Positions 1,112 through 40,497 of a stretch of DNA of 64,000 nucleotides are shown piece by piece. Numbering within the stretch: position 1 is the first letter of the stretch; every line of letters begins with the position of its first letter. Both the position numbers and the translations under genes were made by a program. This DNA is from a phage, in NCBI GenBank assembly GCA_024673055.1, contig GCA_024673055.1_4537.1; one strand, given 5' to 3'. Under the pieces are notes generated by a model. That model ran no database searches and was not told the DNA's origin. It worked only from the letters and a program-made list of their open reading frames with translations.

Positions 1112-1120
1112 GGAGAAAAC

Positions 1121-1264: not shown

Positions 1265-1270
1265 GAAACA

Positions 1271-2178: not shown

Positions 2179-2179
2179 T

Positions 2180-3112
2180 GTGGCTAAATTTAATTGCGAC
2201 GATTTGGTTGAAAAAGGTTTAGTTCATAAGAAAACATATAAAGAAGGAGAGTATTCTGGTCTATCTGTTCTTAAGTATAAGAACAAAGTTTTCTGGGATA
2301 ACTTATGGAGCATTGATTCTCGTCTTCTAGAATGTCGCGGAATCGTTGTTGATGCTGATGACAATGTTGTTATTTGGCCTTTCACTAAGATTTTTAATCG
2401 TTTTGAGAATGGCACAGATCTACCAGCGGATGAACTTGTAGATGTGGTTCGTAAAGTAAATGGTTTTATGGCCTCTGTAGGTGTATATAAAGGTCAACTT
2501 ATTGTATCGACAACAGGAAGCCTTGAATCAGATTTTGCAAGTATTGCAAAGAATCATATTGTTTCAGAGTGTGATGACATAGAACATTTCATCAAATGGA
2601 CAGAGAGTGCAAAAGCAACTTTCCTTTTTGAAATCTGTGATCCTTCTGATCCGCATATTGTCGAAGAAGAACCAGGTGCATACTTAATTGGTGCCAGAAT
2701 TCAAAATCCTGATGGGACAAGTTTTATGTTACCTGAAGGTGCTCTTGATGGAATTGCTTCTGTCACCAAATTTAAGCGTCCTGAAGTTCATCCAATGGTT
2801 AAGTTTTCAGATGTTGTTGAAATGTCTAAACATTGTAAACACGAAGGGTTTGTAGTTCGTGAAACAAACTATCCGTTCAACTTACTTTTAAAAATTAAAT
2901 CACCACACTATCTTACTAAGAAGTTTCTTATGCGCGGTGGAGATAAAAAGTGGGATCTGATTTGGGATAATCCAAAAAATGCCAAACAAATGGTTGACGA
3001 AGAATATTACGCTTTGTTAGAATGGATTCGAAATAATTTTACGAAGATTCAATGGGCTGCTTTAAATCAGCAAGAGCGACGTGAAAAAATCGAAAACTTT
3101 TTTGGAGGATAA
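2180..3112 (+). CDS. rnlA: RNA ligase 1 (T4 gp63/Rnl1 family)
   Basis: GTG start after AAGGAG; LECRGIVVD and KVNGFMASV (nucleotidyltransferase motif I lysine) and STTGSLESDFASIAKNHI align with recalled T4 Rnl1 LECRGIMFE / KEDGSLVST / KSKGSIKSEQALMANGIL. Confidence 0.7.
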   Translation: MAKFNCDDLVEKGLVHKKTYKEGEYSGLSVLKYKNKVFWDNLWSIDSRLLECRGIVVDADDNVVIWPFTKIFNRFENGTDLPADELVDVVRKVNGFMASVGVYKGQLIVSTTGSLESDFASIAKNHIVSECDDIEHFIKWTESAKATFLFEICDPSDPHIVEEEPGAYLIGARIQNPDGTSFMLPEGALDGIASVTKFKRPEVHPMVKFSDVVEMSKHCKHEGFVVRETNYPFNLLLKIKSPHYLTKKFLMRGGDKKWDLIWDNPKNAKQMVDEEYYALLEWIRNNFTKIQWAALNQQERREKIENFFGG

Positions 3113-3517
3113 ATGAAACAACTTATCATTTTACGTGGTGTTTCAGGTGCTGGTAAATCTACAGTAGCAGAAATTATTTCTGAAGGTTATTGGCCTATCT
3201 GTGAGGCAGATCAATATCATTACACAGAGAGTGGTGTTTACGATTGGAAGCCAGAAAATGTAGGTAAAGCACACGCATGGTGTCAGGGTATTGTTCGTGA
3301 TGCTATGGCATCTAATCTTAACAAGATTATTGTTTCTAATACTTCAACCACAGAGAAAGAACTTAAACCTTATCTAGCTCTTGCTGAAGAGTTTGGTTAT
3401 CAAGTTATCTCTTTAGTTGTTGAAAATAGGCACGGTAATGATTCAATTCACGAGGTTCCACAATATATCCGTGATCAGCAAGAGAAACGTCTTCGTGGTT
3501 CACTTAAACTTCAATAA
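3113..3517 (+). CDS. P-loop polynucleotide-kinase-like protein
   Basis: Walker A GVSGAGKST at N-terminus; 134 aa; resembles kinase domain of T4 Pnk; adjacent to Rnl1. Confidence 0.55.
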   Translation: MKQLIILRGVSGAGKSTVAEIISEGYWPICEADQYHYTESGVYDWKPENVGKAHAWCQGIVRDAMASNLNKIIVSNTSTTEKELKPYLALAEEFGYQVISLVVENRHGNDSIHEVPQYIRDQQEKRLRGSLKLQ

Positions 3518-4054: not shown

Positions 4055-4272
4055 GTACTGCATTTTATGTTCGTAGCGGAGACGAGGATTTTTTAGCTAC
4101 TTTTGATGACGGTGATCTTGAAGATATGTATGAAGATATGCTTGACTATGCCAAAGGGCAAGGTTTCACAAGCATTGATTACATGTTGGCAACATCTACA
4201 ACGTTACTCGACGCAGATTTGGATGAAGTGTGTAACAGATTGAAAATTTCAGTTTTTAAATGGGAGGACTAA
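4051..4272 (+). CDS. hypothetical acidic protein
   Basis: 73-aa ORF overlapping stop/start with neighbours. Confidence 0.4.
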   Translation: MSTAFYVRSGDEDFLATFDDGDLEDMYEDMLDYAKGQGFTSIDYMLATSTTLLDADLDEVCNRLKISVFKWED

Positions 4273-5387
4273 TGCAACAAACAAATCAAACGCTGTATGG
4301 TAAAGATTCAAAAGGAAAACTTAAACAGTGGACAGTGTATACAGATGGTGCAGTTGTTACTGTAGCTCATGGAAGAGTAGGTGGAAAAATCACAGAAAAA
4401 TCTTATACAGCAGAAGCAAAAAACATTGGTCGCTCCAATGAAACAACACCGGAAGAACAAGCTGAACTTGAAGCTTTTGCCAAATGGACAAAACAGTTAA
4501 AGAATGGTTATTATAAAACAAAAGAAGAAGCTGAAAACCATGTTCCTTCCACACCAATGAAATGCCAGGATTATAAAGATTATCCTGAAAGGGTTGTGTT
4601 CCCTGGTTATGCACAATACAAACTGAACGGGTTACGTTCTATGATTAACATGAAAGGAGAGTGTTTATCAAAAGCTGGGGAAGTGTATAACCTGCCACCT
4701 CATTGGAAAGGTATTCCAAACTTTATTAGTGAAGTTGTTGGTCATCCTCTTGATGGTGAAGTGTTTGCTGGGTTAGGTGTCCTTAGTCTGCAACAAATTA
4801 ACAGCGCCTGGAAGAAGCATAATGCAAATACACCTTTGCTGAATTATTACGTATACGATATTCCAGTTCCAGATCTACCGTTTGAAAAACGTGTTGATGT
4901 TCTTGCTGCTCTTAAGGCAGTAGTTGAAGATTATGGTCTTAATGAGCTTATTTGTGTAGTTCATACAGAGTATATTGAAAACCAAGAACAGTTTGATGCT
5001 TTCTATGAAAAAGCTTTACTTGAGAAAGCTGAAGGTGTAGTATATCGTAATGCTCACGGAGTTTACGAATTTGATAAACGTTCTTATGACGTTATTAAAC
5101 GTAAGCCTCGCCATACCCTTGAAGTTAAAGTAACAAATTCAAAAAGTGATAAAAATGGCGATGGAGTGTTGACAGGTGAGATGGAAAATGGTAAAGTAGT
5201 CGAATTCTTAATGCGTAAAGATGCTCATGAGACTATCAATTATCGTAAAGCAGAGAATGCTTCTACCTTGATTAATCAGTTTGTTGAAATAGAGTATGAA
5301 GAATTTTCAGATGAAGGTATTCCAACAAAACCTGTTGGTGTTCGTATTCGAGAAATGATCCCAGGCACTTGGGAACCAGCAGAATAA
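4272..5387 (+). CDS. ATP-dependent ligase-family nucleotidyltransferase (probable DNA ligase)
   Basis: Start ATG 4272 after GGGAGGA; motif I variant KLNGLR (KxDG-type), LDGEV, EGVVYR, DVIKRK spaced as in covalent nucleotidyltransferases. Confidence 0.5.
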   Translation: MQQTNQTLYGKDSKGKLKQWTVYTDGAVVTVAHGRVGGKITEKSYTAEAKNIGRSNETTPEEQAELEAFAKWTKQLKNGYYKTKEEAENHVPSTPMKCQDYKDYPERVVFPGYAQYKLNGLRSMINMKGECLSKAGEVYNLPPHWKGIPNFISEVVGHPLDGEVFAGLGVLSLQQINSAWKKHNANTPLLNYYVYDIPVPDLPFEKRVDVLAALKAVVEDYGLNELICVVHTEYIENQEQFDAFYEKALLEKAEGVVYRNAHGVYEFDKRSYDVIKRKPRHTLEVKVTNSKSDKNGDGVLTGEMENGKVVEFLMRKDAHETINYRKAENASTLINQFVEIEYEEFSDEGIPTKPVGVRIREMIPGTWEPAE

Positions 5388-13689: not shown

Positions 13690-15933
13690 TTGATTCGTTT
13701 TGTAACTAAATCTAACGGTAAGACAGAGGAGTTTAATCCAGAAAAACTTCGCAAGTGGTCTGAATTTGCAGCAGGTAAACTAAACTGGTCTGAAATTGAA
13801 TTAGAAGCTGTGAAGCGGTGTTATGACGGTGTGTCTACACGTGATCTGCATAAAGCAATGATTGCAGCGTGTATTGACAAGAAAACACAAGCTTACAGTG
13901 ATATGGCAGGAAGACTTCTTCTGGGTATGATTTACAAACAGGCTCATGGGGGATACCACAGTATCCCTTCACTGAATACCTTTTATCATGATATGGTAGA
14001 ACGTGGACATTGGGCTAAAATGGATTATACTGATGAAGAGATCAAAGAAATCGGTAAGATTGTAAAGCATAATAAAAATCTAACTTATGGTTATTCTGTT
14101 TTACGTCAGATGGTAGATAAATATCTTATTCGAGATGCAGTAAACGATGTTGTGCATGAGTCCCCACAGTTTCTTTTCATTGGTATCGCAATGAAGGTTA
14201 TGGAGATCCAACCAAAAGAACGCCGTATAGAAGATATTAAAAAACTTTATACTTATGTTAGCGATCTTAAGATTAATCTGCCATCGCCGTATCTGACAAC
14301 TCTACGAACTCCAATCAAAGGAAGTGCGTCTTGTTGTTTATTCCGTGCAGACGATACGGCAGAGTCTTTAGCCATTGCTAACTACTTAGCTCATGAGTAT
14401 ACGTTGAATAACGCAGGTATTGGTGTTAATCTTCAAACTCGTGCCACAGGTCAAGGTGTTAAGAATAATCGTATTATTCATGGTGGTCTTCTTCCGTATC
14501 TGAAATGGATGGAAGATAGTGTTGGAGCTTCGAAGCAAGCAAGCCGTGGAGGTAGTGCTACAGTTACCTTTACCATACTTGAACCAGATTTCGACGATCT
14601 GATTCGACTGAAGAATCCAACAACACCTATAGATAAACGAGTAGACAAACTGGATTATTCTATTGTTGTTAACCGTTCATTCTTGCGTCGAGCAGCAAAA
14701 AACGAAGATTGGATGTTAGTTAGTTGTGATGATGCTCCTGAACTTTATGAAGCTTTGTATAAAAGTGAAGAAGAGTTTGATGCAGTTTATGGCAAAGTAA
14801 GCCGTCGTCGCATTAAGAAAAAATTTGTTAAGGCTCGTGATCTTCTGACAGAGATTATTGTTCAACGTGCAGAAACAGGACGTATTTACATGTTCTTTGC
14901 TGACAACGTTAACAACCATACACCTTTCCTGGATACGGTGTATCAATCAAACCTGTGTCAAGAGATTTTCTTACCGACTAAAGCTTTCCACAATATGCCG
15001 GATCTCTTTACTGGTGAGAATACTGAAGATCAAGAATTGGCTTTATGTTTCTTATCTTCTATTGTTGCTGGTCGTGTATTACCTGAAGAATATGAAGATG
15101 TTGCATACTACACTGTATTGACAATTGACAACGTTATTGAAACAATGGATTATCCATTTAAACATAACGAAATAACTGCTAAAGCACGTAGATCTATTGG
15201 TGTAGGCATTACAAACTTAGCGCATTACTTGGCAAGTAATTTTGTAAATTATTCAGATGCTTATGCTAAAAAATTAATGCATGAACTTGCAGAACGTCAT
15301 TACTTTTGGTTGGCAAAAGCCTCTCTGCGTCTGGCTAAGGAAAAAGGTAATGCGGAGTGGATCGATAAGACCAAATGGCCTCAAGGTTGGCTACCAATTG
15401 ACACTTATGCTAAAACAGTAGATAGTATCGGTAATTTTGATCTTAAAATGGACTGGGAAGGCTTACGTGCTGAAATCATTGAACAAGGTGGTATCCGTAA
15501 CAGTGTCTTGGCTGCTATTGCACCCAATGAGTCCAGCAGTTTGGTAAGCAATACTACTAACTCTCTGTATCCTGTTCGTGATACCATTATGTATAAACAA
15601 AGTCAGAAAGGCAGTGTATTATTTATTGTTCCAGACTATGAAAAACTGAAAATGTTCTACCAATCTGCCTGGGATACTCCGGCTAAAGATCTTGCAGAAA
15701 TGTATGGTATCTTTACCAAGTTTACGGACCAAGGAATTTCTTGTGATTCTTGGTTAGATTATTCTAAATTGGTAGGGGGACGTTTATCAGTTAAAGAAGA
15801 GATGAAATTTATTTTGAACTTTGCTAGACTGGGTGGTAAGTCATTGTATTACCTTAATAGTAGAACAAAATCAGCAGACTCTTTAGCACAAGAAGATTCT
15901 GAAGACGAAGGATGTAGTGCCTGTAAAATGTAG
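13690..15933 (+). CDS. nrdA: ribonucleoside-diphosphate reductase large subunit (class Ia)
   Basis: 747 aa; N-terminal ATP-cone-like region; C-terminal CSAC tail; TTG start after GGGAGGAG. Confidence 0.9.
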   Translation: MIRFVTKSNGKTEEFNPEKLRKWSEFAAGKLNWSEIELEAVKRCYDGVSTRDLHKAMIAACIDKKTQAYSDMAGRLLLGMIYKQAHGGYHSIPSLNTFYHDMVERGHWAKMDYTDEEIKEIGKIVKHNKNLTYGYSVLRQMVDKYLIRDAVNDVVHESPQFLFIGIAMKVMEIQPKERRIEDIKKLYTYVSDLKINLPSPYLTTLRTPIKGSASCCLFRADDTAESLAIANYLAHEYTLNNAGIGVNLQTRATGQGVKNNRIIHGGLLPYLKWMEDSVGASKQASRGGSATVTFTILEPDFDDLIRLKNPTTPIDKRVDKLDYSIVVNRSFLRRAAKNEDWMLVSCDDAPELYEALYKSEEEFDAVYGKVSRRRIKKKFVKARDLLTEIIVQRAETGRIYMFFADNVNNHTPFLDTVYQSNLCQEIFLPTKAFHNMPDLFTGENTEDQELALCFLSSIVAGRVLPEEYEDVAYYTVLTIDNVIETMDYPFKHNEITAKARRSIGVGITNLAHYLASNFVNYSDAYAKKLMHELAERHYFWLAKASLRLAKEKGNAEWIDKTKWPQGWLPIDTYAKTVDSIGNFDLKMDWEGLRAEIIEQGGIRNSVLAAIAPNESSSLVSNTTNSLYPVRDTIMYKQSQKGSVLFIVPDYEKLKMFYQSAWDTPAKDLAEMYGIFTKFTDQGISCDSWLDYSKLVGGRLSVKEEMKFILNFARLGGKSLYYLNSRTKSADSLAQEDSEDEGCSACKM

Positions 15934-15944
15934 TAGGAGAACAG

Positions 15945-16601
15945 ATGAAGAAGGGTAAACGTAAAGTTACCGTTCTCACAGAGAGGGGAGAAATCCCCTT
16001 GATTGTGGATGTTGAACGTAGATTGTGGGAAGGTGGTGTTATCAATGGGAAAAGGGTTAATACATTCATAGACCCTTCCTATGCAGCTTGGAAAGGCATG
16101 TTTAATCGTGCATATCGTATGGAAAACATTAGACCAGGTTATAAAGATGTTACTGTGTGTGATGCTTGGTTCACCTTTTCAAACTTTGATAACTGGTATC
16201 AAGAACACAATGTGGAAGGCTTTGTTTTAGATAAAGATCTTGTTCTTGAAGGAAATACTGTTTATTGTCCTGAATATTGTAGGTTTGTTCCTCCTTATAT
16301 AAATACACTCTTAAATTATGCTAAGAGGTATGAAAGAAAATACTTACTAGGAGCACATGTTAGGAAAGATGGTAAGATTTATGCCAAAGCTTCTGGGAGT
16401 AAAGGAAAGCATTTAGGCTACTTCGCTACAGAGGAAGAGGCACACTTCGCTTGGCTAAAAGATAAAGCTAAGTCAATCAGGGAAACAGCGGATCGTTACA
16501 AAGAGGAAGAACATTTTTATCCAGAGGTGTACAACACTCTTGTAAACAAGGCGGATTTCTATTGGCACCTGGCGGAAACAAAAACAGTATTTCGAGGCTA
16601 A
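15945..16601 (+). CDS. HNH/AP2-type homing endonuclease inserted between nrdA and nrdB
   Basis: Position identical to T4 mobE; AP2-like GYFATEEEAHFAW segment; LDKDL...GN...PEYCRFV HNH-like core. Confidence 0.5.
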   Translation: MKKGKRKVTVLTERGEIPLIVDVERRLWEGGVINGKRVNTFIDPSYAAWKGMFNRAYRMENIRPGYKDVTVCDAWFTFSNFDNWYQEHNVEGFVLDKDLVLEGNTVYCPEYCRFVPPYINTLLNYAKRYERKYLLGAHVRKDGKIYAKASGSKGKHLGYFATEEEAHFAWLKDKAKSIRETADRYKEEEHFYPEVYNTLVNKADFYWHLAETKTVFRG

Positions 16602-16644: not shown

Positions 16645-17730
16645 ATGGCAGCAATTAATTTACACAATGAAGTTTACAAAACAGGAAAATATCCAGTATT
16701 TTTGGGGGAGCAATTAGGGATCTTTGATTCTGTTAACGTAACTTATCCAGAAATGCACAAACTCTACAAACTTCAAAAAGCACAAGATTGGGATGAAAAC
16801 GAAGTTAATCTGGATCAGACACGTAAAGATTTCGTAGCTTGTTCTAAAAACAACTATGATGTTATGATTAAAAACTTATCGTTCCAATGGGAAAATGATT
16901 CTCTTGCAAAATCAATCATCACTTTGTTCTCTCCATTCTTGAGTAACAATGAAGCCTGTGCTATGATGATGAAGCAGAGTGAAATGGAAGTTCTCCATGC
17001 GTTAACGTATTCTGAAATAATCCGTCAATGTACTCCAGATCCAATTGAAGTCATCAATCAGATTATGATTAATGATAAAATTTTCAATCGTATGGGTATC
17101 ATTGCTGATATCATGGGTCAGTTGGAAGAAGCTGGTCATAAGTATGCTCTAGGATTGATTGAAGCTAACGATGAACTTCGATTACTGATTCTTAAAGGGA
17201 TGGTAGCCCTGATTGGATTAGAAGGTATTCAGTTTATATCTTCCTTCTCTGCTACTTTTGCTATGGCAGAACAACAACTGTTTGTTGGGGCTTGTAAACT
17301 GATCCAGAAAATTATGCTAGATGAAATCTTGCATGTTAAGATGGATTATGCTGTAATTGATGCATTGATGCATGACCCAATTTGGCGTAAAATTTACGAA
17401 GATAATATTGAAGAGTTGACTTTGATCCTCGACACTGTTGTTGAACAAGAGGAACAGTGGTGTGACTACCTGTTTAGTGAAGGTCGTTTTATTGTAGGTC
17501 TTAACGCCGAATTGTCTAAACAGTGGGTTTATTTCAATGCTGCTCCTATTTATCGTCGATTGAAAATGAAAGCCAAGTTTAAAGCACCTAAACATAGTCC
17601 TTTAGCTTGGATGGAAAAATGGTTGAATCCTGATTTGATTCAGTCAGCAGCCCAAGAGATTCAGTTAACTAATTACAAATTGAATTCAGCTAACAAAGAT
17701 CTCTCTGATGATGAGGAGCTTGACTTCTAA
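16645..17730 (+). CDS. nrdB: ribonucleoside-diphosphate reductase small subunit
   Basis: 361 aa; acidic C-terminal tail (LSDDEELDF); immediately downstream of nrdA/homing endonuclease. Confidence 0.85.
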   Translation: MAAINLHNEVYKTGKYPVFLGEQLGIFDSVNVTYPEMHKLYKLQKAQDWDENEVNLDQTRKDFVACSKNNYDVMIKNLSFQWENDSLAKSIITLFSPFLSNNEACAMMMKQSEMEVLHALTYSEIIRQCTPDPIEVINQIMINDKIFNRMGIIADIMGQLEEAGHKYALGLIEANDELRLLILKGMVALIGLEGIQFISSFSATFAMAEQQLFVGACKLIQKIMLDEILHVKMDYAVIDALMHDPIWRKIYEDNIEELTLILDTVVEQEEQWCDYLFSEGRFIVGLNAELSKQWVYFNAAPIYRRLKMKAKFKAPKHSPLAWMEKWLNPDLIQSAAQEIQLTNYKLNSANKDLSDDEELDF

Positions 17731-21727: not shown

Positions 21728-22228
21728 ATGGGTGTAGCAACAATAGCTATCGGAAGAAGCGGTATAGATGAGTGCTATCAAACGGGACTCGTAAAACCTA
21801 ACGAATTTCGTCAAATTTGTGTAAACCATATTGAAAAAGAGATTGCTCTTACTTTAGAGAATATGACCCTCCGAGATAAACTGGAAATGTTTAAATGTTG
21901 GTGTCTAGGAGAAGATTGGCTTTTAAACCATTTTCAAGAACTTTCTGATAGTAAAGAAAGCTTGTTTGATTGTATAATAGGAATAGCTGGCTCCGATCCT
22001 AGCCTTCTGCACATAACAGAAGAAGAGGCGAAGTTACTGTTCTTAAGTAATTTGTTTAATAAGAAAGCACTGCTTGTTCGTGATTGCAGTGATCTTCTTA
22101 ATAACCCGCTCGCAACGTCTGATCAAATTTTTGTTGACAAAGAGACACTACGTGCGATAGAATACATCTGCAAATATGTGAATGGCGGGAAAGCGGTTCT
22201 TAAAACATTAACAGAGGAGGAAGAATAG
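21728..22228 (+). CDS. hypothetical protein
   Basis: AAGGAGGA SD then ATG 21728. Confidence 0.5.
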   Translation: MGVATIAIGRSGIDECYQTGLVKPNEFRQICVNHIEKEIALTLENMTLRDKLEMFKCWCLGEDWLLNHFQELSDSKESLFDCIIGIAGSDPSLLHITEEEAKLLFLSNLFNKKALLVRDCSDLLNNPLATSDQIFVDKETLRAIEYICKYVNGGKAVLKTLTEEEE

Positions 22229-22920
22229 TGACGACAATTATTGCAACCAAAAATAAGATTTTGAGTGACGGTAAGGTAACTTTTGGTGGACGTGTAGATT
22301 CTATTAATTTCAAAAAGGTCCGAAAAATTGGAGATTACCTTGTAGGTGGTGCTGGTCGTCTGACCTCCGTGCTTTCTTTCTTTCAATGGTTTGAACAAAA
22401 TCTACAGTGCGAAGCAGCACGTGATGCTGTCCCTGGTTTGATGATTCACTCTGATCCAGATAAAGAAGATGAAGAGTTTATTGCACTTGTTGTTCATCCA
22501 GACGGACGTATTTTCCTGCACGAAGGTAACAACCCAACACGTGCATATCCGATTGATGAAGAATATTATGCAGTAGGGAGTGGGTCAGATTTTGCTTTAG
22601 CTGCTCTTGATGCAGGGGCAACACCAGAACAGGCTATGGAAGTAGCTAAAAAGCGAGATGCTTTTTCTGGTGGTGAAACATTTATTGAAGAACAAGACGA
22701 GATTATTGAATTAACAGATGATGATTTAGAAAACTTCTCCAAAGAAGAATTGATCAATCTTTTGAAATTCGGTAATCCCTACGGTGAAGAAGAACCTCGT
22801 AACGTGGCAGGTAACGAGGCGGATACTGAAGAAAAATCTGTTGCAGAAAACAACTTGACTTCTAAATCTGAAAATATTAATCTCGTAAATGTGGCGGATT
22901 TCGAAGGAACCGCTATTTAA
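22228..22920 (+). CDS. HslV/proteasome-beta-like Ntn peptidase with acidic C-terminal extension
   Basis: N-terminal M-TTIIATK (Thr1 nucleophile after Met removal), GGAGRL, YYAVGSGSDFALAALDAG matches HslV GSGG/active-site region. Confidence 0.55.
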   Translation: MTTIIATKNKILSDGKVTFGGRVDSINFKKVRKIGDYLVGGAGRLTSVLSFFQWFEQNLQCEAARDAVPGLMIHSDPDKEDEEFIALVVHPDGRIFLHEGNNPTRAYPIDEEYYAVGSGSDFALAALDAGATPEQAMEVAKKRDAFSGGETFIEEQDEIIELTDDDLENFSKEELINLLKFGNPYGEEEPRNVAGNEADTEEKSVAENNLTSKSENINLVNVADFEGTAI

Positions 22921-22925
22921 CAAAC

Positions 22926-22945
22926 TGCCCCTTCGGGGGCATTTC
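22926..22945 (+). terminator. intrinsic terminator
   Basis: GCCCC-TTCG-GGGGC followed by ATTTCTT. Confidence 0.5.
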
Positions 22946-22965: not shown

Positions 22966-23400
22966 ATGTTACAAGTTCCTGCTAAGTTTGTTGAAGGCGC
23001 TATCCACTCTTACCGTCAAACATGTAAGAGGGCAAGAAACTGTTTAGATGGTCTGGTGGCAAAAACCTATACTGTTGAAAAGAAGAAACGTTGGTTTGGC
23101 AAAGATGTTTATGAAGTTAATATTTTTGGTGAACATAAACTAAACCATGACACTCCTGAAAACATGTTAGAAATATTTCTAAGAGATGACAAAATATCTC
23201 CTATGGATTACCAACTTTTAAAATTTTATGATTCTTCTTTGGCTATTGATAAGTTTGTTGAAGATATTCTGTCTAGAAAAACAGATAAAAACACTTATCC
23301 TCTAGAAGCTGATCAAATAGGATTATTAAACGAGATTTCATCCTTTAAAGAGTTGGATAATATTACAAAAGAGGAGATTTTAGATGGCATTAGATTATGA
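22966..23400 (+). CDS. hypothetical protein
   Basis: 144-aa ORF, AGGAGA SD. Confidence 0.5.
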   Translation: MLQVPAKFVEGAIHSYRQTCKRARNCLDGLVAKTYTVEKKKRWFGKDVYEVNIFGEHKLNHDTPENMLEIFLRDDKISPMDYQLLKFYDSSLAIDKFVEDILSRKTDKNTYPLEADQIGLLNEISSFKELDNITKEEILDGIRL

Positions 23401-23893
23401 TCGCCCAACGAGCGATTATTATCCGACACCGCAAAAAGCAATCAATAGTTTGTTTAGTGTTATAGATTTCAAAAATCTAAAGGAAGAAGGTTGGGTTTTT
23501 GCAGAACCTTGCAGAGGTGAAGCTGAAGCGATTTATCGCCATTTTCCTGAAGGTTCAGAATATTGCGAACTTGAAGAAGGTAAAGATTATTTTAGTCATG
23601 AATGGGAAAATCGTCCCGACATTATAATCACAAATCCTCCATTTAAGTTAGCAATGGAGTTCTTGGAAAAGAGCTTAAAAGAGGCGGATGTTTGTATTTA
23701 TCTTCTTCGGTTGGGTTTCTTGGAGTCAAAGAAACGACGAGAGTTCCATCAAAAGAATCCACCAACAAACCTTATAGTCCTTTCAGAACGGCCTTCGTTT
23801 GTTGCAGGTGGAACAGATAAGACAGCATACGCTTGGTATGTATACGACCCAAAGAATCGTTTGGGCCTCTCTCAACCATTTTATTTTGTTTAA
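23384..23893 (+). CDS. small amino-methyltransferase-like protein (phage Dam-like, NPPF motif)
   Basis: IIITNPPF (motif IV of N6A/N4C MTases) and FAEPCRGEAEA (SAM-binding-like); 169 aa. Confidence 0.5.
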   Translation: MALDYDRPTSDYYPTPQKAINSLFSVIDFKNLKEEGWVFAEPCRGEAEAIYRHFPEGSEYCELEEGKDYFSHEWENRPDIIITNPPFKLAMEFLEKSLKEADVCIYLLRLGFLESKKRREFHQKNPPTNLIVLSERPSFVAGGTDKTAYAWYVYDPKNRLGLSQPFYFV

Positions 23894-23905
23894 GGAGTGT
23901 GAACT

Positions 23906-24142
23906 ATGGGTAAACTAATTATGACAGTGGCTATTGATTTTGATGAAGTAGATGAAAGCCTCAACCTTTCACTTTCTACTGACGTAGATGGCGAAATGGA
24001 TAATATTGAAGCAGCTACTGCTCTTTTCTTCAAAAAAGCCATTGAAGTTTATGCCGAACATGCTGCAAATCAGGCAGTAGATTACGGTGGTATCGTGCGA
24101 GCTTTAGTTCACTCTACCGAGGGCAATGACTGGGAAGATTAA
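23906..24142 (+). CDS. hypothetical protein
   Basis: 78-aa ORF. Confidence 0.4.
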   Translation: MGKLIMTVAIDFDEVDESLNLSLSTDVDGEMDNIEAATALFFKKAIEVYAEHAANQAVDYGGIVRALVHSTEGNDWED

Positions 24143-24345
24143 TGGCTTACAATTATTACTGCATTTATGCACATGAAAAGAAAAAAGGTGACACTGGGAC
24201 TAACGTTTATGCAGAGTCCGAATCTCATGCAAAAGAGATTGGTGCTATCCTTTTATCACGCTGGACTGGAAATAATTACAGTGCAGAAGATATGTTTGCA
24301 GAAGTGGATTCTAGTATCCAAGAAGACAACATAACAACTACGTGA
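24142..24345 (+). CDS. hypothetical protein
   Basis: 67-aa ORF coupled to upstream stop. Confidence 0.4.
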   Translation: MAYNYYCIYAHEKKKGDTGTNVYAESESHAKEIGAILLSRWTGNNYSAEDMFAEVDSSIQEDNITTT

Positions 24346-24390
24346 TATACTTATACTCCCTTTTCGGAGGGAGTATTTTAAGGAGGGATT

Positions 24391-24585
24391 ATGCAGAGCG
24401 GAGAAGAACTTTTAGAGAAACAATTCTCAACGCGTCAACAAGCTTTAAGTTATATGGTTTTTCTAAGCAATCTTGATGTGAATGAGATACTTTTACGGCG
24501 CGAAGGTAATTTCTGGAGCGTTAAATATCATGCAACAAGGTCTGTAATCTACCTGGAAGAGGCGGAATTCTCTTTGGTAGAATGA
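24391..24585 (+). CDS. hypothetical protein
   Basis: AAGGAGGGA SD; preceded by stem-loop CTCCC-TTTTCG-GAGGGAG. Confidence 0.4.
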   Translation: MQSGEELLEKQFSTRQQALSYMVFLSNLDVNEILLRREGNFWSVKYHATRSVIYLEEAEFSLVE

Positions 24586-24599
24586 TCCGAGGAGTAGTT

Positions 24600-25172
24600 A
24601 TGCGTTCAACTTTCACTGGCAAAATAAATGCTGGTTTGATTTTTACAGCAGTAAGCATTCTTAGCAAAAAGTTTAAAGTTGTTAACTTACCTGTGTGTGT
24701 CGATTTCGATCATGTTTTTGATCCTTCGAACCCCACTCGTTGCATAGTAAGGAGCAATGTTGAAAACCCAACAGAAAATCTTTTTTATGTAACAAAACCA
24801 TCTCAAAGCATACTTAACCAGGTTGAGGCGAAATTGATACCTAACGGTAAATATTACTCCTTTTTACCTTGTAAGTCGGTTGAAGTAGAGAATAGCAGTA
24901 CTTTCGCTAACAACTTGTCTGTATTCGTTTTCTTTGTTTCACAGGAAGACGAAACAGATGAAATGGTAGCAACAGTGAGATCACTTTATGACTCTTTAGG
25001 GGTTGTTTATAGTCAACAAGTGTGCGAAAATAATAAAGCCTGTGTAGATTTCATTATCAACGGTATTTGTGTTTGTAGAGTAGAATCTTTTTGGCTGCAC
25101 GATACATATGTGACTGTAGCAGAGGTTATATCTGAACCAAGATTTAGTCATGCGGTTTCGTTAATAATTTGA
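24600..25172 (+). CDS. hypothetical protein
   Basis: GAGGAG SD then ATG 24600 (track start 24582 lacks SD). Confidence 0.5.
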   Translation: MRSTFTGKINAGLIFTAVSILSKKFKVVNLPVCVDFDHVFDPSNPTRCIVRSNVENPTENLFYVTKPSQSILNQVEAKLIPNGKYYSFLPCKSVEVENSSTFANNLSVFVFFVSQEDETDEMVATVRSLYDSLGVVYSQQVCENNKACVDFIINGICVCRVESFWLHDTYVTVAEVISEPRFSHAVSLII

Positions 25173-25182
25173 GGAGGAAGGA

Positions 25183-25512
25183 ATGGAAATTACTACAGAA
25201 CAAGCCCTTATCGACGAGGGTCGTAAAATCTTAGAAAAGTATTTAGGGGAGATTCATAAAACCCCTGGCTATTTGGGTTGGAGAATTGTTGAAGCTGTAG
25301 ATTTCCTTCCTCGTAACAGTAAAAACGTCGAAATGCGATCTCTTTTCTTATTAGTAAAGGTGGATGGGGATACACCTTTTAAAGATGCCGCAGAACATAT
25401 TGAAAAAGTTGAAGAGAAAGCTTATGCAGAATTTGCCGATCTTGTTTTAGAACAAGAGATTGAAGGAAAGGTGAATATTTTTATTTTCTTAGATTTTGAG
25501 GAGGATAAGTGA
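25183..25512 (+). CDS. hypothetical protein
   Basis: 109-aa ORF, GAGGAGGAAGG SD. Confidence 0.5.
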   Translation: MEITTEQALIDEGRKILEKYLGEIHKTPGYLGWRIVEAVDFLPRNSKNVEMRSLFLLVKVDGDTPFKDAAEHIEKVEEKAYAEFADLVLEQEIEGKVNIFIFLDFEEDK

Positions 25513-26252
25513 TCATACACAGAGAAATTACTGTTGAAAGCGATCAAGATCTTTTTATAATTGGAGATCTACACGGTTGTTATAATTTGTATGAAAAAGG
25601 AAAGGCAAAGTTAGGTATCCGAGATACAGATGTGGTTGTATCTCTAGGAGATCTTACTGACCGTGGAAAGCAAAACTTTCGTTGTGTTTTAGAATTTACT
25701 CGTAAACACAATCGCTACGCTATTCGTGGAAATCATGAAGACATGATGATTAAAGGTATGCTGGAAGGAGATCGTAGCTACTACGAGTGTTGGTATCAAA
25801 ATGGAGGATATACGGTCTTTGAAGAATGTGGTGAAGAAGGAGCTACAGCCTTAGCAATGATGACAGAAGATTTACCTGTTGTTCTCATTGTTAACTACAG
25901 AGGCATGAAACTTGCGTTTATTCATGGTGGGTATCCATCTTCTTTGGAATATCTCCCTGTAACAGATATTCCAGAATACATTTCGAAGATGACAAAAACA
26001 CAGGAAAACCGTTTTGCTGAAGCACTTATGTGGGACAGAGATATGGTAGACTGTGCTAAAGAGGGAATGAAACTTCCTGTTGTGATGGGTGTGGATTATG
26101 TGTTTCATGGACACTCTTATGTAAAAACACCTATTATCAATGCGAATCGTGTTTATATGGATACTGGATCTGTGTTCAATAATAACTTAACATTTGCTTA
26201 TTTCGATATGGACGGTGGTCTTCAATTTTATTCAACTCTTGAGGAGGATTAA
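25509..26252 (+). CDS. Ser/Thr protein phosphatase (lambda PPase-like metallophosphatase)
   Basis: GDLHG, GDLTDRG, RGNHE motifs in canonical order; GTG start after GAGGAGGA. Confidence 0.75.
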   Translation: MIIHREITVESDQDLFIIGDLHGCYNLYEKGKAKLGIRDTDVVVSLGDLTDRGKQNFRCVLEFTRKHNRYAIRGNHEDMMIKGMLEGDRSYYECWYQNGGYTVFEECGEEGATALAMMTEDLPVVLIVNYRGMKLAFIHGGYPSSLEYLPVTDIPEYISKMTKTQENRFAEALMWDRDMVDCAKEGMKLPVVMGVDYVFHGHSYVKTPIINANRVYMDTGSVFNNNLTFAYFDMDGGLQFYSTLEED

Positions 26253-26560
26253 TGTATAAGATTACAATTATTCAAAGTGTAGGTAATATCCGTAAAGAAG
26301 TTATCTTAGAAACAGAAGATGTTAATCTTGTTCGTGAGATTGTTCTTAAGGAAGATAACCTGCAAGCTGTAGAATCAGATGCACCGAATCTTATGGTGGA
26401 TCAAGAATATTCTGAACTTCGTCGTATTTTTGAAGAGATTCAGAAGAAAGAAACACAACCGACCATAAAACCTTTTGGTCCTTATGATCCGAGCAATCCT
26501 AGCAGTCCTTGGATCATGAGAAATACGGAACCGTATACACCTTTTGAAATTACTTGTTGA
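26252..26560 (+). CDS. hypothetical protein
   Basis: 102-aa ORF. Confidence 0.45.
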   Translation: MYKITIIQSVGNIRKEVILETEDVNLVREIVLKEDNLQAVESDAPNLMVDQEYSELRRIFEEIQKKETQPTIKPFGPYDPSNPSSPWIMRNTEPYTPFEITC

Positions 26561-26567
26561 GGTGATT

Positions 26568-27149
26568 ATGGCAGAACTGTTCTATACGGGAGTTGGAAGT
26601 AGAGACATATCCGAAGAAGAGTGGGCTTTGATGGTAGGCATAGGGAAATGGCTTTCAAACCTTGGGTTTAAATTAAGGTCTGGGAAGGCAGAGGGTAGTG
26701 ATTCTGCTTTTGAAACAGGTGTCCAAGAGTCTGAAAATCCTACTAACAAGGAGATTTATGTTCCTTGGGAAAATTTCAAAGGTAATCAGATTCCAGGGGA
26801 TGTTATTGTTCTTGCAAAACCAGATACAATGAACTATGCTATCTCTGTGCAATGGATCAAAGATGTTCACCCAGCCTATGAAAAGCTTAAGCAGGGTGCT
26901 AGAAAATTGCACCAACGTAATGTGCATCAAGTGTTAGGTAGAGATTTGGAAAATCCTGCTCCATCATGTTTCTTGTTGGCTTGTGCTAATACTGATAAAC
27001 ATGGAGATGCAAAAGGTGGAACAGCTACGGCTTGGAAGATAGCTAAAGCCAATAATGTTCCTTGTTTAAACATTCGTGGGAAAACAAAACAAGAGATTTA
27101 CGATTTTCTACGACCTTTGGTAATGAGGGCAATAACAAGTGATTCCTAA
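26568..27149 (+). CDS. SLOG/DprA-like Rossmann-fold protein
   Basis: GVGSRD and RSGKAEGSDSAFETG resemble DprA/SLOG SGxAxGxD nucleotide-binding motif; weak. Confidence 0.35.
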   Translation: MAELFYTGVGSRDISEEEWALMVGIGKWLSNLGFKLRSGKAEGSDSAFETGVQESENPTNKEIYVPWENFKGNQIPGDVIVLAKPDTMNYAISVQWIKDVHPAYEKLKQGARKLHQRNVHQVLGRDLENPAPSCFLLACANTDKHGDAKGGTATAWKIAKANNVPCLNIRGKTKQEIYDFLRPLVMRAITSDS

Positions 27150-27651
27150 ACGTAAACGTGGTGAACAAAGAACAAACTTGGCAGAAATCTTAGATTACAA
27201 CATGGTTAATGATGTGACAAAAGAAATTCTGCCTGTTGTAGAAGATATTCTTCAAAGAGGGTTACGATTCTGCTCGGATCGGGTGCATTTCATGTGGACA
27301 CATAAAAGTGACTCCGCTTTGAATTTCTATCCTTTGGATTATACTCTGAACAATACAGAGATGAAAGATATCAACAAATACTTAATGGGATATAAAGATA
27401 TAACCGAAACTGTTCTTGGAGAATTGGCAGAAATCTTGGCTAACGATATTCTTAGAAATATTAATAAGGCTCTTGACAGAAGCCCAGCAGGAGTAGTAGT
27501 ATCTTTTGCTGTGCCAGATATGGTTAAATATGAGTCTACAATACCTAATAAAGCTTATGCCTTTCTTCGGAGAGACGTTCGTGGAAATGTGTTGGAGATG
27601 GAGTCAAACTACAAGATTGAGGAGGTTTTATGGCAGAGTTCGGATCAGTAA
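27139..27651 (+). CDS. hypothetical protein
   Basis: 170-aa ORF; start uncertain (GTG 27139 or ATG 27199). Confidence 0.4.
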   Translation: MIPKRKRGEQRTNLAEILDYNMVNDVTKEILPVVEDILQRGLRFCSDRVHFMWTHKSDSALNFYPLDYTLNNTEMKDINKYLMGYKDITETVLGELAEILANDILRNINKALDRSPAGVVVSFAVPDMVKYESTIPNKAYAFLRRDVRGNVLEMESNYKIEEVLWQSSDQ

Positions 27652-27920
27652 CAAGTTTTGAAAGTAACTTCGTTACCGCTTGGGAAGCTTGGGATGAAAT
27701 GGGTGTTGGGGAACTTTATTTTTACAATGTAACACTACGTCCAGAGTATGCTTACCTGGTACCAGAAGGAACAGTTCAAATTGGCATGTATCTGTCTTCT
27801 CAAGATGGTGTTGTTCAATTTGAGTTTTATTCAAACACAACGGACAACGAATTTACATATCGTGCATTTCATGTCAACATGTCTTTAGGAGAGGAGAAAT
27901 TTTATGACGACCAAGTTTAA
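27630..27920 (+). CDS. hypothetical protein
   Basis: 96-aa ORF, GAGGAGG SD. Confidence 0.45.
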   Translation: MAEFGSVTSFESNFVTAWEAWDEMGVGELYFYNVTLRPEYAYLVPEGTVQIGMYLSSQDGVVQFEFYSNTTDNEFTYRAFHVNMSLGEEKFYDDQV

Positions 27921-28101
27921 AACAGTAGAAGAAGCCGTAAAAGCAGCTTATGAGGCTTTAGCGGAAGCAGAGCAGTTAGCAGATGAGACTGGTAAAGGTT
28001 TCCGTTTCTCCCCTGAATATGGGATGGGTGGCTATTATGATCCAGAAGATGAAAATGAGAATACTGGAACAAATTGGCATCCATCTTCTTTAAGTTGTTA
28101 A
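27904..28101 (+). CDS. hypothetical protein
   Basis: 65-aa ORF, GGAGAGGAG SD. Confidence 0.4.
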   Translation: MTTKFKTVEEAVKAAYEALAEAEQLADETGKGFRFSPEYGMGGYYDPEDENENTGTNWHPSSLSC

Positions 28102-28112
28102 TAGGAGGTAAA

Positions 28113-28388
28113 GTGGGAATCGAAGATATCAAAGGTTATAAGGCGCATACTGACGATAAGATTGGCAAGGTTAACGCTATTAAAGATGCAGAAGAGCGTT
28201 TAGGTTTAATCTTCAAAGCTTTAGAGGAAGAGTATTGTGAAGCATATCATGGGTCTTTTGACGGCACAGAAAAAGAATTAGATCTTGCATACGAACGTAT
28301 TGATCAAATCCGTTGTGCTATTAAACATTTAAAAGAAGCTAGTATGTGGGCTTGTCGTTCAGTTTTCCAACCAGAGGAGAAATACTAA
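28113..28388 (+). CDS. hypothetical protein
   Basis: AGGAGG then GTG 28113. Confidence 0.4.
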   Translation: MGIEDIKGYKAHTDDKIGKVNAIKDAEERLGLIFKALEEEYCEAYHGSFDGTEKELDLAYERIDQIRCAIKHLKEASMWACRSVFQPEEKY

Positions 28389-28606
28389 TGAGTGATCGTA
28401 ATGTTGAAGAATTAACTGAAAAAGCCCAAGCTATTATGGCTTTAGTGGACGAACTTACAAAAGAAGCTGAAGATGCTGGTTTTGGTCTTAGTTTAGAAAA
28501 TGACGCAATCTGTTTTGAAGATTGGCAATCCTCTTCTTGTTATGGTGAAGGTGATGATGGTTTCGTCGTTAATTCTCAAGGCGTTTGGCACAGTAGTAGC
28601 TGTTAA
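28388..28606 (+). CDS. hypothetical protein
   Basis: GAGGAGAAATACTA then ATG 28388. Confidence 0.4.
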   Translation: MSDRNVEELTEKAQAIMALVDELTKEAEDAGFGLSLENDAICFEDWQSSSCYGEGDDGFVVNSQGVWHSSSC

Positions 28607-28615
28607 GGAGAGATT

Positions 28616-28888
28616 GTGGAGTCTGAAGGCGAACTGCTGATAAAAAAGAAAGTTAAAGAGATGGAACAAGCACAAAGAAAGTTTCGTAAGGAGATTGAAG
28701 AACTTTGTGAACAGTTTCAGGAACAAGCTTGGATAGGTGACTACGGTAACGGAGAAACTTATTACCCTACAGGAACGCCAGCCGCAGATCACTATATTGA
28801 TTTCATTTGTGAAGATTATGGTGTAGAGTTGGATGAAAATGGTTTAACCACAAGAGGTGTTTGGATCTCTTCTTCCTTAATGTGTTAG
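28616..28888 (+). CDS. hypothetical protein
   Basis: GGAGAGATT then GTG 28616. Confidence 0.4.
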   Translation: MESEGELLIKKKVKEMEQAQRKFRKEIEELCEQFQEQAWIGDYGNGETYYPTGTPAADHYIDFICEDYGVELDENGLTTRGVWISSSLMC

Positions 28889-28897
28889 TAAATAATA

Positions 28898-28919
28898 ACC
28901 CGCTTCGGCGGGTTTTTTA
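28898..28919 (+). terminator. intrinsic terminator (UUCG tetraloop)
   Basis: ACCCGC-TTCG-GCGGGT followed by TTTTTT. Confidence 0.65.
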
Positions 28920-28922
28920 TTG

Positions 28923-31704: not shown

Positions 31705-32190
31705 ATGTTTCAAGTAAATGTCAATGTGCATAATAGTTACTCTGATTGTGAAACGTGTGGCTATAATTCATCTAATGTTATTCGTATTAGTGGCGATTTA
31801 GGAGAAGCTTCTTTTGGAGAAGAAGCAAGTTGCTTTAGTGGTATGGATGCAGAATGGAATGATATTGCACATTGGTTAGTGAGCAAACTAAAAGAAAAAG
31901 AGAAACCATTTCCTACTCTGCTTGATCGTTCTCTTGTGGAAGATGCAGGTAAAGCATATGCAGACTATGCGTATGCAGACGGGAAATATTTGGAAGATGA
32001 TAAGGCTAACCATTTGCTTTATGTTTACTATGAAGCTGAATCTGCCTACGATAATTATTACAGCATGTCTAACATCCTACGTCTGTTTGCAGAGTTTGAT
32101 ATTTATTTCGAAGTAGAATTTTCAGAAGATGATACTTACGAGTACAATTCTTATGATCCATTTGAGGAGGAAGAATGCCAAGACGAGTGA
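31705..32190 (+). CDS. hypothetical acidic protein
   Basis: 161-aa ORF, AGGAGGGAATATG. Confidence 0.5.
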   Translation: MFQVNVNVHNSYSDCETCGYNSSNVIRISGDLGEASFGEEASCFSGMDAEWNDIAHWLVSKLKEKEKPFPTLLDRSLVEDAGKAYADYAYADGKYLEDDKANHLLYVYYEAESAYDNYYSMSNILRLFAEFDIYFEVEFSEDDTYEYNSYDPFEEEECQDE

Positions 32191-32990
32191 TTTTTGTAAG
32201 TGGTGCAGGTTTAAGTGCAGACAGTGGGATTCGAACATTTAGAACAGACACAGATAGTGGTCGTGCTTTATGGGAAGAATATGATTTAGAAGAGGTCTGC
32301 GATATTGGAGCTTTCCAAGCAGGTTATCGTGTTAGAACATCTCCAGATCTTCCAGTGGTCGGTGGTGTAGACGAGAACGGTATGGATTTGTATGCCAAAA
32401 CACACGAATTTTATAACAAAAGACGTGTTGAGCTTAAAGATGTACAACCTAATGCTGCACATATTCAAATAGCAAAGTGGTTTAAGGAATATCCTAACCA
32501 AATAGTAAACTTGACAACAAACGTTGATGATCTACTAGAGCGAGCAGGTGTAGACAGAGATTCTGTTATTCACGTACACGGATATCTTCCTGAAGTAGTT
32601 TACCGTATGCATCCTGGAGATTACAAAACACTGGTAGATATTGGTTACAATAGTATAAACATAGATGATTATAACTGGGTGAAGCCTAATGTTGTATTTT
32701 TTGGTGAGGCTGCACCTTTGTATGCAGATATGGCTCACTTGTTCGATACTTTGACCATGCAAGATTTGGTTGTAGTAGTAGGATGTTCAAACCAAGTTAT
32801 CAATTTTAATTGGGAATTATTTCCTGCACTTAGTATGGGTACAAAAATGGTTGTAGTTAACCCTGGAGTTAATTACGAAGAAACACTTCTCTATGAAGAT
32901 CGTGGAGTTTTTGTTTACCGAGAAAAAGCTGCAACAGCCTTCAGCAATGAAGGTTTCATTAAAATGGTCGAAGACCACTTAAACAAATAA
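32175..32990 (+). CDS. SIR2-family (sirtuin-like) NAD-binding protein lacking zinc module
   Basis: FVSGAGLSADSGIRTFR matches sirtuin GAGxSxxSGIPxFR; NVDDLLERAG and HVHG motifs present; no CxxC zinc ribbon. Confidence 0.65.
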   Translation: MPRRVIFVSGAGLSADSGIRTFRTDTDSGRALWEEYDLEEVCDIGAFQAGYRVRTSPDLPVVGGVDENGMDLYAKTHEFYNKRRVELKDVQPNAAHIQIAKWFKEYPNQIVNLTTNVDDLLERAGVDRDSVIHVHGYLPEVVYRMHPGDYKTLVDIGYNSINIDDYNWVKPNVVFFGEAAPLYADMAHLFDTLTMQDLVVVVGCSNQVINFNWELFPALSMGTKMVVVNPGVNYEETLLYEDRGVFVYREKAATAFSNEGFIKMVEDHLNK

Positions 32991-33310: not shown

Positions 33311-33337
33311 AAAGGCACCCAAGTGGGTGCCTTTTCT
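33311..33337. terminator. bidirectional terminator at convergence point
   Basis: GGCACCC-AAGT-GGGTGCC hairpin flanked by T-tracts on both strands between converging gene blocks. Confidence 0.6.
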
Positions 33338-39819: not shown

Positions 39820-40497
39820 CTATTTAATGTTCAGTCTGGCACACAAACGAGAAACAGTTTTAGCATCCCATTTACCACCACGTGCTGTTGCTATTTTCTT
39901 ACTATTGAATTTTTCAGCAATAGTTTTGTAAGGTGTATTTAAATCTCTAAGGATCTCCAAACGTTCACGGAATGTCTCTGCAAAAGCGTCTGCTTTAACA
40001 GAGTTGTATTCCATTTTTCCTTTTCTACGTGCAGCGGCAGTTTTAGGATTAGCACTGCCTAATAAAACACCTTTGCTTTTTGCTACAGCAAGACCCTTTT
40101 TAATACGATCAGCAATACCTCTAACTTCTTGTTCAGCCAGAACAGACAGAAGCTGTATAACCATTTTATCTGCGTCTGGCATGATGGCTATCTTAACATC
40201 GATCATTTCTAGAAGAGTTGCTACGGAGGCGTTGTTACGACCCAAGCGGTCAACTTTAGCTACCAATAAAGTTGCTCCGGTAGCTTTACACATTTCAACC
40301 GCTTTAACCAGTTCCTTACGTTGCTTCCAATCGCCCTTACCCGAATAGTATTCAGAAAATTGACCAATAACTTCCGCATCAGGCACAGAGTCTAAGAAGT
40401 AACGGATATCGTTCTCCTGGCTCTGCATACCATACTGGGCTTCACCTTTCTTCTGTTTAGACAAACGGCTGTAAACAACAAACTTTTTCATGATCAA
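39820..40497 (-). CDS. serine recombinase (resolvase/invertase family)
   Basis: VYSRLSKQ (catalytic Ser region), LLVAKVDRLGRN, LLSVLAEQEVRGIADRIKKGLAVAKSKG align with Hin/Gin/resolvase core; C-terminal HTH-like tail. Confidence 0.7.
   Translation of the reverse strand: MIMKKFVVYSRLSKQKKGEAQYGMQSQENDIRYFLDSVPDAEVIGQFSEYYSGKGDWKQRKELVKAVEMCKATGATLLVAKVDRLGRNNASVATLLEMIDVKIAIMPDADKMVIQLLSVLAEQEVRGIADRIKKGLAVAKSKGVLLGSANPKTAAARRKGKMEYNSVKADAFAETFRERLEILRDLNTPYKTIAEKFNSKKIATARGGKWDAKTVSRLCARLNIK

Follow-up and report, generated by a model that had tools for sequence, protein, structure and literature searches.

The window analysed here is a stretch of 64,000 nucleotides of phage DNA, for which the original prediction had proposed a lambda-type Ser/Thr phosphatase encoded by an open reading frame (ORF) of the + strand, and this ORF was found in the ORF list with exactly the predicted ends. 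Over the 4 kb around it, the sequence has 99.5-99.7% identity to many published Escherichia phages from the genus Phapecoctavirus in the subfamily Stephanstirmvirinae, among them phAPEC8, Mt1B1_P17, ESCO13, and tuntematon. These phAPEC8-like relatives are lytic myophages of about 150 kb. The gene is already known, and dozens of published Phapecoctavirus genomes have it annotated with more than 99% identity. The records of the relatives label it 'putative serine/threonine protein phosphatase' or 'NinI-like serine-threonine phosphatase', and a CDS at the same coordinates is annotated in NC_052662. The gene, its translation signals, and the parts of the predicted active site are as follows.

25498..25504, + strand: Shine-Dalgarno sequence GAGGAGG, 4 nt upstream of the GTG start (sequence read directly)
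25509..26252, + strand: CDS of a lambda phosphatase (lambda-PP)/NinI-type binuclear metallophosphatase, 247 aa, GTG start and TAA stop (ORF list, Pfam, PHROG, 1G5B, NC_052662)
25563..25577, + strand: motif I, GDLHG, residues G19-G23, with D20 and H22 equivalent to the lambda-PP metal ligands D20 and H22 (motif scan, pairwise mapping, 36 homologues)
25647..25667, + strand: motif II, GDLTDRG, residues G47-G53, with D48 as the bridging metal ligand (lambda D49), D51 equivalent to lambda D52 of the Asp-His dyad, and R52 equivalent to the phosphate-binding lambda R53 (motif scan, mapping, alignment)
25728..25739, + strand: motif III, GNHE, residues G74-E77, with N75 as metal ligand and H76 as general acid (lambda N75 and H76; motif scan, mapping, alignment)
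25923..25925, + strand: codon of H139 in 'IHGG', metal ligand equivalent to lambda H139 (alignments, invariant column)
25926..26036, + strand: clade-specific segment between H139 and R177 with predicted helices at residues 151-158 and 163-175 (pairwise and multiple alignment, AF2)
26037..26039, + strand: codon of R177 in 'WDR', equivalent to the phosphate-binding lambda R162 (alignments, invariant column)
26112..26114, + strand: codon of H202 in 'HGH', metal ligand equivalent to lambda H186 (alignments, invariant column)
26241..26247, + strand: GAGGAGG, the Shine-Dalgarno sequence of the downstream ORF 26252..26560, inside the last phosphatase codons (E-E-D; sequence read directly)

The phosphatase gene is packed tightly between its neighbours. 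Its Shine-Dalgarno sequence sits within the last codons of the upstream ORF 25183..25512, and the TGA stop of that ORF (25510-25512) overlaps the GTG start of the phosphatase (GTGA). The overlap of stop and start together with a Shine-Dalgarno sequence inside the upstream ORF suggests that the phosphatase gene is translationally coupled to this ORF. At the other end, the TAA stop of the phosphatase overlaps the ATG of the downstream ORF 26252..26560 (TAATG). The GTG start is correct because the next in-frame Met is residue 79, which lies beyond all three N-terminal motifs, and because the homologues in the 36-homologue alignment all begin at the same column. For the acidic tail LEED, which is conserved at the C-terminus, a role as docking or pseudosubstrate motif was considered. 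This was rejected since there is a simpler explanation, namely, that its codons, GAGGAGGAT, serve as the Shine-Dalgarno sequence of the next gene.

The three motifs that had been read as GDxHG, GDxxDRG, and GNHE are all present in the right order and with the right spacing, and when all 64 kb were scanned for the motifs in six frames, this ordered trio was found in the phosphatase ORF only. Pairwise mapping placed lambda-PP residues D20, H22, D49, D52, and R53 on D20, H22, D48, D51, and R52, and lambda-PP residues N75, H76, H139, R162, and H186 on N75, H76, H139, R177, and H202, respectively, so that all ten catalytic positions of lambda-PP are identical in the phosphatase. These ten positions are invariant across the 36 homologues, which include lambda-PP and range from 24 to 83% identity, and so are two further motif glycines, G53 and G74. 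Every metal ligand is present on the lambda-PP alignment and the loss of ligands that would mark an inactive protein was therefore not seen.

The profile searches agree with the motifs, and their matches to the family are much too strong to be due to chance. The protein matched Pfam PF00149 (Metallophos) with 51.2 bits against a gathering cut-off of 21.5 (E=2.7e-13, profile positions 5-188 of 191), which makes it a member of this superfamily, and it is a full-length member of phrog_246, 'NinI-like serine-threonine phosphatase' (E=1.9e-75, 255.5 bits, residues 1-244). The lambda phosphatase of known structure, PDB 1G5B, was matched by sequence over residues 11-230 with E=5.7e-27. In the AF2 model, which was built on 35 sequences and has a mean pLDDT of 95.7 and a pTM of 0.93, the protein is a single compact domain, and the top Foldseek match of this predicted structure was again 1G5B (E=1.4e-20, TM 0.77 by query and 0.85 by target). 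The next fold matches, with E of about 1e-11 to 1e-10, were the putative Ap4A hydrolase 2QJC, PP1-type protein phosphatases, and the phosphatase domain of Clostridium thermocellum Pnkp (CthPnkp), 4J6O. Thus, the description of the gene product as a lambda-type Ser/Thr phosphatase is supported by sequence, catalytic residues, and predicted fold, and the enzyme class and the intact active site are established at the level of alignment and model.

Among NCBIfam models the best match was E. coli PrpA (PRK11439) with 93.6 bits against an equivalog cut-off of 326, followed by E. coli PrpB (PRK09968) with 83.2 bits against 332, both over residues 5-230. Since these scores are far under the equivalog cut-offs, orthology to PrpA or PrpB was rejected and the phosphatase is only a relative of these enzymes. 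Judged by sequence, its place within the PPP family is on the lambda-PP/PrpA/PrpB branch, and no named bacterial enzyme is its ortholog. Three other memberships were rejected as well, namely, PrpE (PRK13625; 37.1 against 340 bits) and the symmetrical Ap4A hydrolase ApaH (PRK00166; 32.1 against 176 bits), both of which align only over about residues 16-80, and bacterial Pnkp (TIGR04075; 22.3 against 750 bits), the phosphatase being a single domain with the kinase and RNA ligase genes 22 kb off.

These weaker matches raise the question whether the enzyme acts mainly on nucleotides or nucleic-acid ends and not on proteins, either as a 2',3'-cyclic phosphodiesterase/3'-phosphatase that heals RNA ends or removes cyclic-phosphate signalling or cleavage products, or as an ApaH-like Np4N hydrolase or decapping enzyme. 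We consider this unlikely, although several observations are in its favour. Both 4J6O and 2QJC are among the top fold matches, and the HMMs of PrpE, ApaH, Pnkp, and phrog_8238, a Pnkp-like 'RNA ligase', match the N-terminal part weakly. Lambda phosphatase itself is promiscuous, as it also hydrolyses bis-pNPP as a diesterase and 2',3'-cyclic nucleotides as a phosphodiesterase, and it is the structural archetype of the RNA-repair phosphatase domain of CthPnkp (PMC2190708). This promiscuity means that homology does not fix the substrate class. However, the matches to PrpE, ApaH, and Pnkp are confined to the N-terminal 65-85 residues or so and are far under their cut-offs, whereas the best full-length matches are protein phosphatases. 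Protein substrates are favoured because the nearest full-length relatives, 1G5B, PP1, and PrpA/PrpB, are all of this kind.

The same comparisons bear on whether the protein is a metallophosphoesterase (MPE) nuclease that damages host DNA, like Gp48 of mycobacteriophage A10ZJ24, in which case degradation of the chromosome would silence host and defence genes. A phage MPE that acts on DNA in this way has been reported (PMC12287305) and there are nucleases within the MPE superfamily. However, in the PDB, Foldseek, and NCBIfam comparisons the nearest proteins by sequence and fold are lambda-PP, PrpA/PrpB, and PP1 and not enzymes of the Mre11/SbcD or Gp48 type, and the single compact domain carries no DNA-binding extension. 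A nuclease of this kind is thus very improbable.

Comparison with known enzymes shows how far the likeness goes. Lambda-PP (NinI/orf221, 1G5B) is, like the phosphatase described here, a stand-alone phage enzyme of the PPP type of about 25-28 kDa, and the two have the three motifs, the distal His ligands, and both Arg residues in common, and belong to the same PHROG. Lambda-PP is the best match of our protein by sequence and by fold. They differ in that identity is about 34% (75 of 218 aligned residues) by sequence and 28% in the structural alignment, that the phosphatase is about 15 residues longer between H139 and R177, where two helices are predicted, and that it has a C-terminal extension of about 10 residues that ends in LEED. 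Moreover, the gene of lambda-PP belongs to the nin region of a siphophage that is temperate, whereas the phosphatase described here comes from a lytic myophage of 150 kb. E. coli PrpA/PphA and PrpB/PphB fall in the same lambda-like bacterial PPP subgroup and align over nearly their full length but are not orthologs. In the T5-like phage IrisVonRoten, bas32_0155 is the lambda-type phosphatase of a lytic coliphage, with about 33-34% identity over 99% of the query, although the T5-type phosphatase is longer (287 aa). The phosphatase domain of CthPnkp has a binuclear lambda-Pase-like fold (4J6O, Foldseek E of about 1e-10, TM of about 0.65), and the N-terminal metal-binding motifs are common to CthPnkp, ApaH/PrpE, and the phosphatase. 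On the other hand, the phosphatase is without the fused kinase or ligase domains of CthPnkp, and the HMM matches to CthPnkp and ApaH/PrpE are limited to its N-terminal third.

The phosphatase has homologues in 1,358 phage records, among which are T5-like, lambda-like, Vibrio, and jumbo phages, and at least 130 of these records carry a homologue with 60% identity or more. The syntenic position of the gene is kept across the Stephanstirmvirinae. Against the ortholog in phage W22 of the sister genus Justusliebigvirus, which has 75% amino acid identity, dN was 0.20 and dS was saturated, so that dN/dS in this comparison is to be read qualitatively only. As dN is far under a saturated dS, the gene is under purifying selection, and no other gene of the local block is as well conserved in the comparison with W22. 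From the intact and invariant residues, the fold match of the AF2 model, and the relation of dN to dS, we conclude that the phosphatase is, to judge from alignment and modelling, a functional and selected lambda-type binuclear metallophosphatase. A pseudo-enzyme, whether a remnant in decay or one that has lost catalysis, is extremely improbable. Nothing specific speaks for such a remnant apart from the dispensability of the archetype, ninI, in the laboratory, and it is contradicted by catalytic residues that are all intact and invariant, a full-length ORF with a strong Shine-Dalgarno sequence, the low dN, and conservation in so many phage records.

It had also been claimed that a few genes separate the phosphatase gene from that of another metallophosphoesterase, and this was not borne out. 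A Pfam scan of the 141 ORFs of at least 55 aa found exactly two Metallophos members in the window, and the only other one, ORF 1627..2178, is about 23.3 kb or about 40 ORFs upstream. In the RefSeq relative no metallophosphoesterase is annotated within 12 kb on either side of the phosphatase. The small MPE has 183 aa and matches Metallophos with 3.1e-5 and phrog_547 'phosphoesterase' with 6.5e-56. The block in which it lies contains the following genes.

767..1111, + strand block: protein with a cREC_REC 'cyclic-phosphate processing receiver' domain
1627..2178, + strand block: small MPE
2180..3112, + strand block: Rnl1-type RNA ligase
3113..3517, + strand block: P-loop AAA_33/PNK-like kinase

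By its gene content the region 767..3517 looks like an RNA-repair cassette. This weighs against a role of the lambda-type phosphatase in nucleic-acid end metabolism because a separate MPE, ligase, and kinase are encoded 22 kb away and, since the phage has an RNA-repair-like cassette of its own, the niche of end-healing appears to be filled. The small MPE is homologous (BLASTP 1e-8) to a second 'phosphatase' directly downstream of the lambda-type one in T5-like phages, IrisVonRoten included. Based on this homology and on the two layouts, both MPE types co-occur in both lineages but are adjacent only in the T5-like phages, the genes being 23 kb apart here.

The phosphatase gene lies in a + strand block that extends from position 1 to about 33.3 kb and encodes ligases, a ThyX-like protein, NrdA/NrdB, sugar-nucleotide enzymes, PhoH, an HslV-like peptidase, two DNA methyltransferases, and a Sir2 protein. 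There are no tRNA genes in the window. The assignment of the gene to an early module is plausible since this gene content, with its nucleotide metabolism and methyltransferases and the anti-defence gene described below, is typical of early or middle genes. We found no data on expression timing or essentiality for Phapecoctavirus or Stephanstirmvirinae, and published statements rest on genome organisation alone. The putative boundaries of the expression unit are these.

22926..22941, + strand: terminator-like GC hairpin with a T-run, intergenic, candidate upstream boundary of the phosphatase unit (consensus scan only)
28897..28914, + strand: terminator-like GC hairpin with a T-run, intergenic, candidate downstream boundary of the phosphatase unit (consensus scan only)
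28920-28948, + strand: promoter-like site after the downstream hairpin (consensus scan only)

The two hairpins may bracket a unit, 22966..28888, of about 16 tightly packed ORFs that includes the phosphatase gene. Within this putative unit, five ORFs downstream of the phosphatase, is ORF 28113..28388, which codes for a close homologue of T4 Vs.4 (PDB 7UQ2, E=1.8e-28) and matches Pfam Acb2_Tad1_hairpin with 2e-16. We take T4 Vs.4 to be an Acb2-type anti-CBASS cyclic-nucleotide sponge. A neighbour that handles cyclic nucleotides is a further point in favour of nucleotide substrates. The local gene order, 'HisRS-like', 109 aa, phosphatase, about 100 aa, and 'DprA-like', is kept in Justusliebigvirus. 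Sequence searches of the PDB with the 'DprA-like' and 'HisRS-like' neighbours gave no match, and PADLOC defence models gave no match for the phosphatase and five neighbours. Conserved partner genes were looked for and rejected as the flanking ORFs are not homologous to those in jumbo phage GAP32 and are unrelated in T5-like phages. By this comparison, a conserved module is absent beyond the Stephanstirmvirinae and the partners do not point to a specific substrate.

The chemistry of the enzyme can be deduced with confidence from lambda-PP, since that of the PPP family is well established. By analogy, two metal ions of the Mn2+ type would be held by D20, H22, D48, N75, H139, and H202 and would activate a bridging water, and this water would attack a phosphomonoester placed by R52 and R177 while H76, paired with D51, would protonate the leaving group. 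We are highly confident that the gene product is an active lambda-type phosphoesterase. Translation of the gene would be coupled to that of its two small neighbours. The gene would be expressed as part of an accessory block of closely spaced genes, which lies on the strand for replication and nucleotide metabolism in this lytic phAPEC8-like myophage. We propose that its product is a broad-specificity phosphoprotein phosphatase that would strip phosphates from Ser, Thr, and Tyr, and possibly His, of host, defence-kinase, or phage proteins, and that its function is probably accessory and fitness-enhancing and not essential. The archetype, ninI of lambda, belongs to the delayed-early genes and is not needed for plaque formation (PMC10695390). 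Taken as a whole, with protein substrates included, this is the best explanation and we hold it with moderate confidence. Within it, we infer the protein substrates and the expression timing, and the proposal of host signalling or defence-kinase proteins as the specific targets is speculative.

A narrower proposal is that the phosphatase is a counter-defence enzyme, co-expressed with the Acb2/Vs.4 sponge, that erases phosphorylation by kinase-based abortive-infection or toxin-antitoxin systems. Its opponents might, speculatively, be Ser/Thr kinase modules of the KKP type or toxin kinases like HipA and Doc. KKP is a toxin-antitoxin defence made of a Ser/Thr kinase, a second kinase, and a PP2C, is found in bacteria that include E. 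coli, and fires when its phosphatase antitoxin is inhibited by a phage protein (PMC11341870). By analogy, a phosphatase that is promiscuous and encoded by a phage could in principle stand in for the KKP antitoxin, and the enzyme would then in effect replace the host antitoxin phosphatase that phage infection has inactivated. The nearby Acb2/Vs.4 homologue gives this weak support through guilt by association. Two anti-defence surveys make no mention of phosphatases, nor does the HIDEN-SEQ preprint mention phosphatases. In the literature on Stk2 and KKP the only phosphatases found were host- or prophage-encoded PP2C enzymes, and in the T7 kinase paper a phosphatase was used merely as a reagent. 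We found no evidence that links the lambda-type phosphatase family to counter-defence, and we regard such a function of the enzyme as quite doubtful.

As a sequence feature the phosphatase matters little, since it is an ordinary gene and its enzyme family is a textbook reagent. To our knowledge, phage lambda-type phosphatases have no known in vivo substrate or selective advantage, although the gene occurs widely and purifying selection acts on it. The phage kinase T7K, which disarms defences, and the kinase-based KKP defences have both been described recently. In light of these descriptions, and because the gene lies near a known anti-CBASS gene, the phosphatase is a reasonable candidate for a counter-defence function. 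If it has this function, it would provide a physiological role for the whole lambda-PP/NinI family, a family that about 1,350 phage genomes carry and for which such a role has been missing since the 1980s-90s.

The lambda-type phosphatase gene (25509..26252, +) and the ORF upstream of it both end in the codons GAG-GAG-GAT (E-E-D) (26241..26254 and 25498..25512, respectively), and in both cases the following gene takes its GAGGAGG Shine-Dalgarno from these codons. At the start of the phosphatase gene its GTG overlaps the upstream stop (GTGA), and at its end its TAA overlaps the downstream ATG (TAATG). Judged from the sequence, the ends of both ORFs are sites of predicted translational coupling embedded in the coding sequence. 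The acidic C-terminal tails are probably conserved because the E-E-D codons double as the Shine-Dalgarno of the following gene.

T4 Vs.4 is Acb2, a cyclic-nucleotide sponge that counters CBASS. A close homologue of it (PDB 7UQ2, E=1.8e-28) is encoded five ORFs downstream of the lambda-type phosphatase; this homologue matches Pfam Acb2_Tad1_hairpin at 2e-16 and is labelled only 'hypothetical protein' in the RefSeq relative, NC_052662. Its ORF is listed from 28074, and the coordinates used here are 28113..28388. This homologue and three small ORFs around it are as follows.

28113..28388, +, Vs.4/Acb2 homologue
27904..28101, +, small ORF
28388..28606, +, small ORF
28616..28888, +, small ORF

All three small ORFs have a Glu-rich helix-like N-terminal region and a C-terminal ending W-x-S-S-(x)-C. 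Compared in pairs they resemble one another weakly (BLASTP 0.006-0.013), and none of them had a match in Pfam. They may be paralogues that make up a small family of unknown function.

An HNH-like ORF and three other accessory genes lie elsewhere in the window.

15945..16601, +, HNH homing-endonuclease-like ORF (phrog_953, 1.6e-56)
22228..22920, +, HslV-like peptidase with an acidic C-terminal extension
32175..32990, +, Sir2-family protein (Pfam 1.9e-22, phrog_2162)
39823..40497, -, Resolvase-domain ORF

The HNH-like ORF sits between nrdA (13690..15933) and nrdB (16645..17730). Since the nrdA-nrdB gap is just 44 nt in the published Phapecoctavirus Mt1B1_P17, this comparison indicates that the ORF is a putative mobile insertion that is strain-specific. 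The Resolvase-domain ORF shares 56% identity with a 'DNA invertase' in the Justusliebigvirus phage W22, where the gene has a different position, just upstream of the phosphatase block.

The + strand gene block spans 1-33.3 kb and the - strand block, with about 80 mostly small ORFs, spans 33.4-64 kb. Where they converge there is a terminator-like bidirectional hairpin (~33311..33334), and the sign of the GC skew switches near 33 kb.

Among the records that match this E. coli phage region are 'Acinetobacter phage vB_AbaM_ABPW7', at 99.6% identity in nucleotides, and 'Pseudomonas phage PsgM04F', at 82% in amino acids, as well as records labelled Klebsiella and Campylobacter. Host labels may be unreliable in some of these records.

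An RNA-repair-like cassette of four genes (767..3517, +) is also present, and a DNA ligase gene comes after it.

767..1111, +, cREC_REC 'cyclic-phosphate processing receiver' protein
1627..2178, +, small metallophosphoesterase (MPE; phrog_547)
2180..3112, +, Rnl1-type RNA ligase
3113..3517, +, P-loop AAA_33/PNK-like kinase
4260..5387, +, ATP-dependent DNA ligase (outside the cassette)

The sole PDB relative of the small MPE is Aquifex aq_1665, of unknown function. By BLASTP (1e-8) the small MPE also has a homologue in the T5-like phage IrisVonRoten: the second 'Ser/Thr phosphatase' there (4846..5367 of the comparison locus L004), which is directly downstream of that phage's lambda-type phosphatase. 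Thus, the two MPE types co-occur in unrelated lytic coliphages. The cassette itself could counter defences that cleave tRNA or other RNA.
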